Source: Escherichia phage ECP2303. From it: a DNA stretch of 64,000 nucleotides. Position numbers and translations under genes: made by a program. Below the pieces are notes generated by a model, which worked only from the letters and a program-made list of their open reading frames with translations, searched no databases and was not told where the DNA came from. This document shows positions 60,960 to 64,000 of this stretch, piece after piece. The stretch lies in the sequence record PP261279.1; one strand, given 5' to 3'. The stretch's first letter is position 1. Each line of letters starts with the position of its first letter.

Positions 60960-61058
60960 GGTGCTAGGTGATGGAATCGAACCACCTATGTATTCAACGA
61001 CTACCTCGTCTATTTTCAGGATTAAAAATCCTCGCCCTTGCCAAAGGGCTTACCTAGC
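60960..61058 (-). tRNA. Atypical tRNA-like element (possible tRNA-Lys UUU with oversized variable region, or pseudo-tRNA)
   Basis: About 99 nt. Perfect 7-bp acceptor stem GCTAGGT/ACCTAGC, D-arm GCCC/GGGC and T-arm GGTGG-TTCGATT-CCATC. The central 46 nt holds a perfect hairpin AGGATT-TTT-AATCCT (readable as a loop UUUUUAA) plus a further 28 nt. Confidence 0.4.
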
Positions 61059-61623: not shown

Positions 61624-62082
61624 TTAACTATTGCCAACAGGCTGTATTTCTGTGGTAAATGGCATAAAAGGTGCTGGTTTTTCAGCCTCTTCTACTACCA
61701 CCTCTTCCTCTTCACCAAACATCTCATCATATTCTTCCTGCATTCGGTCTGCCTTATCAAGAACATACTCTGCAATGCTTTGACGAATATTTTGTTTGGT
61801 TTTCGGGTCCAACATCAGCTCTCTTAAAACTTTGTGAGCTTCTGGAACCATCGCTATAAAAGATTCCTTCATATCAAGGATGTTCTTCTCTAGCTGAATG
61901 GCGTTGGACTCCTCTTTCAGAGGTCTGCCTCTACGGCGACGCTTTTTAGTTGTATCCGCCATGTTTCCTCCATTATCACGTGATAGGTGGATTTTATCAC
62001 GGCAAATACTGATTGTCAAGTTCGCCGCAGGGTGGTATTCCCTGCGACTTGCCCAGCGTCCTGGACCAGCAAGACCCAACAA
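61624..62082 (-). CDS. Small basic/acidic protein, possible DNA-binding (candidate small terminase or regulator); probable true start at 61962
   Basis: Internal ATG at 61962 is preceded by GGAGG and by a consensus promoter. The product starts MADTTKKRRRRGRP (basic, AT-hook-like) and ends in an acidic tail. Confidence 0.5.
   Translation of the reverse strand: MLGLAGPGRWASRREYHPAANLTISICRDKIHLSRDNGGNMADTTKKRRRRGRPLKEESNAIQLEKNILDMKESFIAMVPEAHKVLRELMLDPKTKQNIRQSIAEYVLDKADRMQEEYDEMFGEEEEVVVEEAEKPAPFMPFTTEIQPVGNS
61991..62019 (-). promoter_or_regulatory. Strong sigma70-like promoter with adjacent palindromic operator-like site
   Basis: Minus strand reads TTGACA (62019-62014), 17-nt spacer, TAAAAT (61996-61991). 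A perfect 10-bp palindrome ATCACGTGAT (61974-61983) overlaps the predicted transcription start, with GGAGG-ATG downstream. Confidence 0.6.
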
Positions 62083-62307
62083 GTGGGTTACCAGATACCC
62101 ATTACCGCGCTCTGGCTCGACCTTATTACAGGTTGGCTGGGGTCACATCGTCATGTGCTGGCTGCCCCTACCATTTTAAGTGTGGTGCACTATCAAGCCC
62201 TCTAAGGGGAACTCAGACTTCTCCGAACCCTGTTTCAAAGCATCCGGAGATAAAGCCATCAAACTCATCTTTAAATTGGATATTCATCATGATACACGAA
62301 AACAACC

Positions 62308-62825: not shown

Positions 62826-63404
62826 TCAACGTTCGTAGTAAATCTTATTCAACATTACCTCATCGTTTGCAGAAAGGATATCAAGATATGCATCACCAAA
62901 TCTGCCTGCAACAACCTCTGCATGATACATCACTTCGTTAACATCGTCAAGAGTGATAACCGGATGACCATATCTTTCTGAATATTGTCTCAGTGTGCGA
63001 TGTAACGAGTCGTCATCATATGCAGACTTTTTAATATCACAAACACGACGAATGGCCTTGATGTCGAAAAAACCTGTGCGATACCACCCAAGAAAAAAGT
63101 TCCGTGTAGTGTCAACATCTACATCAATACCATTAAGAACCTTATCTACAAGATAGCTGTCATCCTTTGGACTAGCGTCCTTAGTGCGAATGTAGTTGCC
63201 ATCTTTTCCAGGTGATAGCTCCTTCTCATCACCAACTTGCATGCCATCATTTGGCGGTGTTAGCCACTTATCAGGATGCTTACGATCACGAGCGTTAGAA
63301 TGATTACGCTGGAAACCTGGCTTCCACTTGAAAGTTTTCTCCATCTGTTCTTCATTCTGATAACGTTTTGCAATCTTTTCACTGGCATCTTTGCGTGAAC
63401 TCAT
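62826..63404 (-). CDS. Hypothetical protein (192 aa)
   Basis: GAGGAG lies 6-8 nt upstream of the ATG at 63404; co-oriented. Confidence 0.55.
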   Translation of the reverse strand: MSSRKDASEKIAKRYQNEEQMEKTFKWKPGFQRNHSNARDRKHPDKWLTPPNDGMQVGDEKELSPGKDGNYIRTKDASPKDDSYLVDKVLNGIDVDVDTTRNFFLGWYRTGFFDIKAIRRVCDIKKSAYDDDSLHRTLRQYSERYGHPVITLDDVNEVMYHAEVVAGRFGDAYLDILSANDEVMLNKIYYER

Positions 63405-63780
63405 AGCAGACTCCTCTTCAAGTTATAGAAAAACTCACTGTATCGCTTTGTAACGAGCTTTTCTATCAAACTGGTGCGATTGCCTTACTTGGTATAGTTT
63501 ATATAGCTGTGGAGCGATTTAGGGGCCTTCTTGTCAGTTTCCACACATAAACTTTATCCGAACTCGCGCGGGAGGCTCTCAACCGACTCCTTCCGGCGCT
63601 GGCAAGCTTTCGTCGGTGGTACACATTAGTGCTCGGCCTTTGGCCTGCGCTATCGCTTCGCTCCCACACATGTTAACAGTCCTGCATGTATGCACTTCTG
63701 TTATTGTGTGCACTATGGAGGCCCGGCATCTCGCCCCTCGTAGGCGAGTGCCAATGAAGGGCCGACACTACCCATAATAA

Positions 63781-63900
63781 GTAATAAATTTAAAACATGG
63801 TACTTAGGATCTAGTATATTCTACATAAGTTAAGTATATGTACTTTAGTACCATAAGTACTAGATCTTTTATTTTTATTATTTAGTTATTTTAGTTATAT
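63781..63900. repeat. AT-rich region with multiple short inverted repeats
   Basis: GGATCTAGTA (63807-63816) pairs with TACTAGATCT (63858-63867); palindrome GTACTTTAGTAC; direct TTATTTTAG-like repeats. No ORF. Confidence 0.6.
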
Positions 63901-63907
63901 TCTTTAT

Positions 63908-63990
63908 GTGTCCGTATCACGGACAGTTAGTGTCCGTATTACGGGCAGATGTGTCCGCGTGACGGACAGTAGTGTCCGTATCACGGACAG
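63908..63990. repeat. Array of four tandem palindromic 19-bp repeats (GTGTCCGTATCACGGACAG) at 21-22 bp spacing
   Basis: Units at 63908-63926, 63931-63948 (degenerate), 63951-63969 and 63972-63990. Each is an inverted repeat TGTCCGT-N3-ACGGACA. The array runs to the window edge and may continue. Confidence 0.8.
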
Positions 63991-64000
63991 TTACTAACCT

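Follow-up and report, generated by a model that had tools for sequence, protein, structure and literature searches.

What are four tandem palindromes doing beside an AT-rich block, in a gap between two phage genes? The question is raised by the right-hand end of a stretch of DNA of 64,000 nucleotides from Escherichia phage ECP2303 (sequence record PP261279.1), which was analysed as a whole and is referred to below as the window. The answer that we prefer, and to which we give about even credence, is that the palindrome array, the AT-rich block and a winged-helix (wH) protein of 116 amino acids encoded next to them form the replication origin of the rV5-like phages, built in the style of lambda and RepA_N from iterons and an unwinding element; binding, DNA opening and origin activity at the array and the AT block are what we infer from sequence comparison. 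The array lies in a gap of 660 bp between two minus-strand genes, and in the direction of these genes the order is the 116-amino acid wH gene, a 75-bp spacer, the array, the AT block, a GC-rich block of 230 bp, a leader of ~130 nt, and a gene for a protein of 192 amino acids.

Over its last 2 kb, the window matches Escherichia phage ECP2309 (PP464953; genus Vequintavirus, an rV5-like myovirus of 136,863 bp) at 100% identity, and 118 other records at 90-99%. Near the array, a window coordinate equals the ECP2309 genome coordinate minus 32,460, and the genome-wide scans reported here, i.e., those of motif uniqueness, GC skew and duplex stability, cover the whole 136.9-kb ECP2309 genome.

The palindrome array and the AT-rich block

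The array occupies positions 63908-63993 and is composed of four units of 21-22 bp, each with a 17-bp palindrome of the form TGTCCGT-N3-ACGGACA; we propose that these are iterons, i.e., predicted sites for wH dimers. Iteron 1 (TGTCCGTATCACGGACA, 63909-63925) has perfect 7-bp arms and recurs in identical sequence as iteron 4 (63973-63989), which is likewise perfect. Iteron 2 (TGTCCGTATTACGGGCA, 63931-63947) differs at two positions and has a single arm mismatch, at arm position 3, where phage JEP1 carries the consensus base; iteron 3 (TGTCCGCGTGACGGACA, 63952-63968) differs at three positions and has 6-bp arms around a 5-bp centre. The centres read ATC, ATT and CGTGA. The initial annotation of this DNA had described four tandem palindromes of 19 bp, of which the copy number stands, but the length must be corrected to 17 bp (7+3+7), contained in the longer repeat unit. 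The start-to-start spacing is 22, 21 and 21 bp, which is two helical turns, and the four sites therefore lie on one face of the DNA, as that annotation had maintained. Its further statement that the array runs to the window edge does not hold, since the array stops at 63989-63993, and the identical genome PP464953 continues after position 63993 with unrelated sequence and then a gene; the array is thus complete inside the window.

The array is unique in the ECP2309 genome, where the next-best arm match has two mismatches. When up to three mismatches were allowed, the palindrome motif produced eight strand-matches, all of them within the array, against an expectation of 0.11, and none of 100 shuffled sequences reached eight; no further copy of the palindrome occurs outside the array in the whole genome. 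Folded as single-stranded DNA, the array gave z-scores of -6.4 and -7.0. A scan of IMG/VR for TGTCCGT-N3-ACGGACA returned 104 scattered matches, with no array among the 80 loci listed, and one GenBank record marks the array element as a bare 'repeat_region'.

Directly upstream of the array, as the initial annotation had also noted, is the AT-rich block (63775-63907, ~19% GC), our proposed DNA-unwinding element. By nearest-neighbour duplex stability, no other 100-130 bp of the genome is as unstable. The minimum falls in the 100-bp window at genome position 96,268 (window 63,808), with a dG of -102.2 kcal/mol, compared with a genome mean of -133.5 kcal/mol per 100 bp (standard deviation 5.7) and a runner-up of -110.4; the block is thus ~5.5 standard deviations below the mean. 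It is also the GC minimum of the genome at 60, 100 and 130 bp. The inverted repeats that had been reported in this zone are indeed present, with 21-nt arms that are 71-81% complementary, but they are no better than chance: the z-score of the zone as folded single-stranded DNA was -1.1 for both strands, and an equally good fold was obtained with 22-24 of 200 shuffles. At the array-proximal end of the block are T-rich tandem 9-mers on the plus strand (TTATTTTAG, 3.4 copies, 63869-63898).

Two GATC sites are found in the block, at 63808 and 63863. Clustering of GATC, considered as an origin hallmark, was dropped, as there are only two sites in 130 bp and GATC is common genome-wide; the clustering is stronger in the sister genera described below. 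Short motifs bearing GTACT (GTACTTAGG, GTACTTTAG, GTACTAGAT, and the reverse CTAGTA) are repeated in both orientations within the block (63775-63905), and these, as well as the two GATC/AGATCT sites, are invariant in the six phages compared in the next paragraph. The GTACT motifs could be sites for a second factor.

Constraint within the genus was measured as mean pairwise divergence in an alignment of six Vequintavirus members that were picked for diversity, namely ECP2309, FV3, Aya, SYGMH1, JEP1 and rV5. Divergence was 0.029 in the array and 0.025 in the AT block, which is nearly invariant in the six members, as against 0.10-0.13 at the third-codon positions of three flanking genes and 0.26 in the 24-bp spacer that adjoins the array. 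In other words, the array and the AT block evolve 4-5 times slower than the neighbouring third-codon positions; the GC block, at 0.042, is ~2.5-3 times slower than these. The few changes in the array are not scattered: all six variable positions fall in a palindrome centre or at arm position 3, and T1, G2, C4, C5, G6 and the linkers between palindromes never vary. The 226-bp element was found in 118 phage records, with coverage of at least 80% in 117 and identity of at least 95% in 113; none of 5,426 complete E. coli genomes contains it.

The neighbouring winged-helix protein and its candidate cognate repeats

The wH gene is on the minus strand, just outside the window (at the equivalent of window positions 64065-64415), ~75 bp past the array. 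It is the third gene of a leftward operon that starts at a divergent promoter region 1.5 kb off; its operon neighbours encode a kinase-like ATPase and a metallophosphoesterase, and no replication proteins, and on the far side of the divergent promoter region are genes for RNA ligase, Sir2, DNA ligase and nucleotide metabolism. The array sits 3' of the wH stop codon and so is not that gene's own promoter operator, which excludes simple autoregulation.

Depositors have variously labelled the 116-amino acid protein as a replication initiation protein, a transcriptional regulator, and DsrC-like. In Pfam it reached 28.5 bits with DUF6945 (cut-off 28) and 24.8 bits with HTH_36 (cut-off 25). Among the PHROG families of 'replication initiation' it matched phrog_8102 (E 1.9e-7), with weaker matches to the O-like (phrog_391, E 0.0044) and DnaD-like families. 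When all PDB sequences were searched, the only significant match was 4RO3, with E 9.4e-6 for the sequence and 2.7e-6 for the family profile; the alignment joins residues 10-91 to residues 8-93, i.e., ~70% of both proteins, and generic regulators were more than 1000-fold weaker. The structure 4RO3 is PLE RepA's N-terminal domain (NTD), from a Vibrio cholerae phage satellite, and the 116-amino acid protein is of the length of this NTD alone. PLE RepA is a genetically and biochemically proven initiator, the NTD dimer type of which binds semi-palindromic direct-repeat iterons; RepA and the non-coding origin region suffice when ICP1 infects, the protein bound the origin repeat in electrophoretic mobility shift assays, and its placement in RepA_N was by structure, not by sequence (PMC7145576).

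The protein family is narrowly distributed. Tblastn found it in 118 Vequintavirus records only. A word-indexed search of 5.8 billion proteins returned only members of the same family, 84-97% identical, and one fragment, and an exhaustive HMMER scan of 1.84 billion representatives returned one family cluster, the next full-length matches having E ~3e-6 or weaker. The idea that relatives serve as plasmid replicons was abandoned, as plasmid searches gave only a whole Vequintavirus genome deposited as a plasmid and one marginal match. This deposit, CP057073.1 in PLSDB, is a complete 137.6-kb genome entered as a 'plasmid', non-mobilisable, of E. coli isolated from cattle faeces, and could be a carrier-state culture or contamination.

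More distant forms of the protein, each with its own repeats, were found in the sister genera Seunavirus (KE23, 4MG), Mydovirus (Mydo, KNP2) and Henunavirus (pEp_SNUABM_01), the genomes of which carry two modules, each with its own protein. Module 1 of KE23, 4MG, Mydo and pEp_SNUABM_01 encodes a wH homologue of 105-107 amino acids at the equivalent divergent early switch. It is tied to the window-type protein by phrog_8102, by BLASTP (E 3e-7) and by an hhalign probability of 91%, and the wH proteins across modules form one family. The KE23-type proteins of module 1 (66-100% identical, in four phages of three genera) are always accompanied by two copies of TCAATTTGAGCATAGGC at 23-bp spacing; this repeat includes the dyad TCAAWTTGA and adjoins a T-rich/GATC block. 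Phage KNP2, of the same genus as Mydo, has a near-identical promoter and AT block, but a different wH gene (phrog_8453) occupies the slot, and the repeats are of the form TATTCC-N6-GGAATA in 24-bp units. In module 1, a strong sigma-70 promoter precedes the repeats, the wH start codon follows them, and the promoter fires through the AT block into the repeats.

Module 2, which is located elsewhere in the genome and was compared in five phages (KNP2, PVP-SE1, 4MG, Mydo and KE22), is laid out as in the window, with the wH stop codon followed by tandem dyad repeats, an AT/GATC block and a GC-rich block. There are three matched types of wH protein and repeat, and the AT and GC blocks are near constant: KNP2 and PVP-SE1, with proteins 90% identical, have two copies of TGCAAAWTTTGCA; 4MG has two copies of TG(C/A)CAAAAACG, with CAAAAACG as the centre; and Mydo and KE22 have two to three copies of CCGGACAC. 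A CGGACA half-site shared by the window array and the Mydo/KE22 repeats was taken as a coincidence, the proteins not being correspondingly similar. The AT/GATC block is highly conserved, with up to four GATC sites in ~50 bp. The GC block contains a conserved hairpin, GAAGTGA...TCACTTC, with a variable loop, and extends to the start codon of the next gene; it may be a structured 5' leader or a small RNA. It follows the AT block as its counterpart in the window does, yet no sequence homology between the two GC blocks was detectable. The AT blocks of modules 1 and 2 in KNP2 are the two 100-bp windows of lowest stability in its genome (-105.8 and -106.4; mean -135.5, standard deviation 5.9). A hidden Markov model of the family, made from all twelve proteins, found a single member in ECP2309, and Vequintavirus therefore has one module.

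Judged from these genomes, the AT block is the partner that stays constant beside the repeats, whereas the protein varies with them, i.e., the wH gene and the repeats are swapped as cassettes. Co-variation of protein and repeat beside a constant AT block is what cognate binding predicts.

Replication origin, operator or another element

If the locus is an origin, the four palindromes would act as iteron-like sites for dimers of the 116-amino acid wH protein, which would be an early product of the leftward operon beginning at the divergent promoter region. The dimers would fill the four dyad sites on one face of the DNA and form a cooperative, bent complex like the O-some of lambda, the stress of which would open the adjoining AT block. 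The replisome of the phage would then enter, comprising a gp4/DnaB-like helicase-primase, a PolA-type polymerase and a PIF1/RecD-like helicase of superfamily 1B (SF1B). This reading is favoured by the kinship with the RepA NTD, the genome-wide stability minimum and the nearness to the minimum of GC skew, and also by the lambda-like anatomy, the recurrence of AT instability in the sister genera and the placement of the array after a stop codon. A literature search found no replication data for the Vequintavirinae, and no description of the element or of an origin in the subfamily.

It is to be noted that several observations weigh against an origin. First of all, the global minimum of the cumulative GC skew of ECP2309, at ~97.5 kb and 1.1 kb from the array, coincides with the switch of transcription direction and is fully confounded with it, for which reason it was given little weight; the 2013 reference paper on rV5, which tried to place the origin but did not define one, reported the same inflection and ascribed all such changes to transcription direction (PMC3606486). 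Neither DnaA boxes (with up to one mismatch) nor consensus sites for IHF were found in the AT block. The 116-amino acid protein matched neither RepA_N (PF06970) nor DnaD_N (PF21984) of Pfam at E <= 0.1, nor Phage_rep_O, and DnaD_N was matched only in two of its remote relatives. It comprises the DNA-binding domain only, without the C-terminal domain that is thought to recruit the machinery in lambda O and RepA_N. The protein family is shallow, and the AlphaFold model, made from a four-sequence alignment, is therefore poor (pLDDT 42); the fold assignment comes from sequence profiles only, and a winged helix is equally the fold of ordinary regulators. In the sister genera, two modules per genome, each with its own protein, would be unusual for origins and ordinary for paralogous regulators; the position of the module-1 repeats looks like autoregulation, and the module-2 AT block holds a sigma-70-like TTGATC-16-TATAGT, read by eye, that points into the GC block and the genes beyond. 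Phage ICP1, the one relative in which a theta origin is mapped (near 60 kb), was tried as an equivalent and rejected, there being no wH gene of the family and no repeats at that origin. Finally, an AT-rich and repeat-rich region at 12.2-13.1 kb of the ECP2309 genome competes with the array as a possible regulatory or replication hub. This gene-free region of 935 bp (genome 12156-13091), probably the 'non-coding' box of the rV5 map, has strong sigma-70-like promoters, three copies each of GGCCCCGCCAGGT and GGGAGACAAYCACCGGGG, 55-nt repeats and the second least stable 100-bp window of the genome, with no wH-family gene nearby.

The initial annotation had left the choice between a replication origin, an operator array and a packaging or terminal boundary. 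The presence of a dimer-type wH protein next door and its co-variation with the repeats across genera lend support to the first two, and none was found for the third. An operator array is the main alternative, although we hold it to be less probable than an origin: the wH protein would be a transcription factor, and the palindromes would control a promoter in or beside the AT block with no role in replication. The controlled transcript could be the leftward one into the GC block and the 192-amino acid gene, or a rightward one from the promoter-like TGAACA-17-TATAGT (plus strand, at the equivalent of window positions 64012-64040), which lies between the array and the wH stop codon, ~20 bp beyond iteron 4, and is conserved in six phages. 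Transcripts from this site would be antisense to the wH gene, and the closest palindrome centre is at ~-66. Such a function fits the name of transcriptional regulator given by several depositors, the sub-threshold matches of the protein to winged helices of the CodY, LexA, TrmB and GntR types, and the arrangement of dyad sites on one face, which is typical of cooperative repressors; it would also fit the module-1 repeats between promoter and start codon, the promoter-like sequence of the module-2 AT block, and the paralogous pairs of modules.

Several observations count against an operator. A promoter scan found no sigma-70 consensus promoter in the AT block or overlapping the array; the AT block has a -10-like TAGAAT (minus strand, 63823-63818) without a -35, and the array would be at -97 to -180 of its putative start, a long distance for direct activation or repression. 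Since it is found at a single locus, the array cannot be the site of a global temporal regulator. Moreover, an operator leaves unexplained the genome-wide stability minima, seen in two genera and three modules, and the best characterised relative of the protein is an initiator domain and not a regulator.

A combination of the two functions is unlikely, in our judgement. The complex would mark the origin and also regulate or insulate transcription, as a roadblock or switch, or through transcriptional activation of the kind seen in lambda, T7, and oriF and oriG of T4. Passages in the lambda literature state that ori requires transcriptional activation and that O contacts RNA polymerase (PMC7466680; PMC3017604). 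In module 1, the promoter indeed fires through the AT block into the repeats, and in the window, leftward transcription of the wH operon must cross the array and the AT block, no terminator being predicted. However, such a dual function is purely inferential and adds assumptions to both of the readings from which it derives.

That the palindromes act in RNA, as transcript hairpins that stabilise, mark processing sites or form a terminator-like barrier, is highly improbable. Each unit can form a hairpin with a stem of 6-7 bp, and transcription from the wH operon probably covers the region, but no hairpin is followed by a U-tract and no terminator was predicted. There are two arm substitutions, one in copy 3 of FV3 and one in copy 2 of every phage except JEP1; each produces G-U on one strand and C-A on the other, and as the G-U strands of the two are opposite, no single strand keeps the pairing. 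The array has no compensatory changes, the linkers between the hairpins are likewise invariant, and a periodicity of two helical turns is meaningful for duplex DNA and not for RNA.

The least probable of all, and only barely worth entertaining, is a packaging (pac) site or genome terminus bound by the small subunit of terminase, for which one may cite the large terminase gene ~4.3 kb off on the same strand, the fact that pac sites can be repeat arrays, and the lack of an assigned function for the 192-amino acid neighbour, but against which stand the reported circular permutation of rV5, with no fixed ends (PMC3606486), the lack of a terminase or helix-turn-helix (HTH) signal in that neighbour, the co-variation of the repeats with the wH protein and not with packaging genes, the location of the sister-genus modules among early and metabolic genes (NAD synthesis, RNA ligase, endonuclease), and the finding that no record among the matches listed begins or ends at the array.

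Flanking features and comparison with known systems

On the other side of the AT block, the conserved GC-rich non-coding block (63540-63770, minus strand, 53-60% GC) separates it from the 192-amino acid gene. Folding of this block gave z-scores of only -2.3 and -2.9, none of 76 predicted pairs showed compensatory changes, and an Rfam scan of the intergenic region, including the block, gave no real match; it may be a structured leader, a non-coding RNA, or a part of the origin or module. Phage rV5 has a clean 18-bp deletion within it, and gp074 of rV5, a 56-amino acid open reading frame (ORF) annotated here, looks spurious. A scan of IMG/VR with an invariant 22-mer of the block found one contig only. 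A likeness to the GC block of the sister genera (ATGTGTGTGG...) was rejected, as the nhmmer profile had no match in the window or genome.

The 192-amino acid gene (62826-63404, minus strand; phrog_12226, genus-restricted) is the first to be met by transcription that leaves the module. Searches of Pfam, PHROGs, NCBIfam and PDB with its product gave neither a terminase nor an HTH signal, and these searches lend no support to the product as the small terminase. Farther from the array, a second GC-rich (~56%) non-coding block (61963-62307), unrelated to the first and unique in the genome, lies just right of a cluster of seven tRNAs; the cluster includes a tRNA-like gene (60960-61058, minus strand) to which ARAGORN assigned a four-base anticodon, atcc, and the type '???', and which scored 35.5 bits with the Rfam tRNA model. 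Separately, 18 records of the series MG0656xx are named 'Campylobacter phage', with C. jejuni as host, but are 94-98% identical to E. coli Vequintaviruses across the locus; the naming or host looks wrong.

The closest anatomical parallel is the ori of lambda, where O dimers bind four iterons next to an AT-rich region, every iteron being an imperfect inverted repeat of 19 bp (PMC7466680). The window likewise has four tandem dyad sites, of 17 bp, that abut an AT tract, with a linked gene for a candidate initiator. The differences are that the ori of lambda is within the O gene, whereas the window array is ~75 bp past the wH stop codon; that O has ~300 amino acids, with a C-terminal domain that recruits P-DnaB, compared with 116 for the wH protein; and that the phage here is a virulent myovirus of 137 kb with its own helicase-primase. 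Lambdoid phages fall into ori/O specificity types, in which the iterons and the DNA-binding domain swap together, and the joint exchange of wH protein and repeats resembles this. The repressor-operator immunity cassettes of lambdoid phages are similar in their tandem dyad sites and in the small dimer-type DNA-binding protein encoded alongside, exchanged as a unit. Such operators overlap promoters, however, whereas here no consensus promoter overlaps the array, which follows the gene; furthermore, the phage is virulent, and the relatives of the protein are initiator domains and not HTH proteins of the Cro/CI type.

In plasmid origins of the iteron type, such as P1 oriR, F oriS, R6K, RK2 and pPS10, tandem sites of ~17-22 bp at a pitch of about two turns accompany an AT-rich unwinding element, and a winged-helix Rep protein is encoded alongside. 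The iterons of the plasmids are direct repeats that lack symmetry, and Rep binds them as a monomer with two winged-helix domains; its dimers bind a separate inverted repeat for autorepression. The window differs in that each repeat is dyad-symmetric, the protein is single-domain, and there are no DnaA boxes. The primary origin of T7 and oriF and oriG of T4 consist of a promoter and an unwinding element and need no sequence-specific initiator array. They resemble the present locus in belonging to virulent phages with their own replisomes and in having an AT-rich element in the path of transcription, as with the module-1 promoter, but here the array and its dedicated predicted binding protein are the conserved, co-varying parts.

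Initiators of the RepA_N type, which include PLE RepA (4RO3) and the RepA of staphylococcal pSK41 and pTZ2162, resemble the wH protein in that their NTD is a dimeric DNA-binding module. RepA has an additional C-terminal domain, whereas the NTD stands alone here; RepA_N iterons usually converge on a poly-A tract, whereas the window repeats, which are semi-palindromic direct repeats, have a variable centre of 3-5 bp that is not poly-A, though the module-2 repeats of 4MG have CAAAAACG there; and in PLE, repA has no iterons next to it. To function, PLE RepA needs the phage's replisome and an SF1B helicase (PMC7145576), and rV5-like phages encode such a helicase (PMC3606486). Overall, the design is that of lambda ori, or of RepA_N and the iteron plasmids; the differences are the array outside the gene, the stand-alone DNA-binding domain, and the setting in a large virulent myovirus with its own replisome.

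Collections for E. coli O157 typing, biocontrol and therapy make wide use of rV5-like phages, and the locus offers a precise origin candidate for them, comprising ~220 bp and a protein of 116 amino acids, in a design that recurs across the subfamily. Should it be an origin, it would allow origin-based engineering, e.g., of infection-dependent replicons or of decoy plasmids that titrate the initiator, and it would account for a conserved non-coding region that annotation pipelines have left blank or filled with spurious ORFs. If it is an operator array instead, it would be a regulatory switch where the early wH operon gives way to the tRNA, lysis and structural genes downstream. An origin would also extend the iteron logic of RepA_N and lambda to large virulent myoviruses, in a minimal, domain-only form. 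A broader and rather speculative proposal is that the Vequintavirinae carry exchangeable cassettes of origin specificity, each a RepA-NTD-like wH protein with its own dyad repeats beside a constant unwinding block, with a single cassette in each Vequintavirus genome and two in those of the sister genera. If this were true, initiation would be achieved by a DNA-binding domain alone, the replisome or SF1B helicase would enter without a dedicated loader domain, and the swapping of cassettes would set the compatibility of replicons between co-infecting phages. The initiator of the PLE satellite begins with this domain, and satellites could therefore have taken their initiators from such cassettes, or could use the cassettes as the place where they parasitise the replication of the phage.

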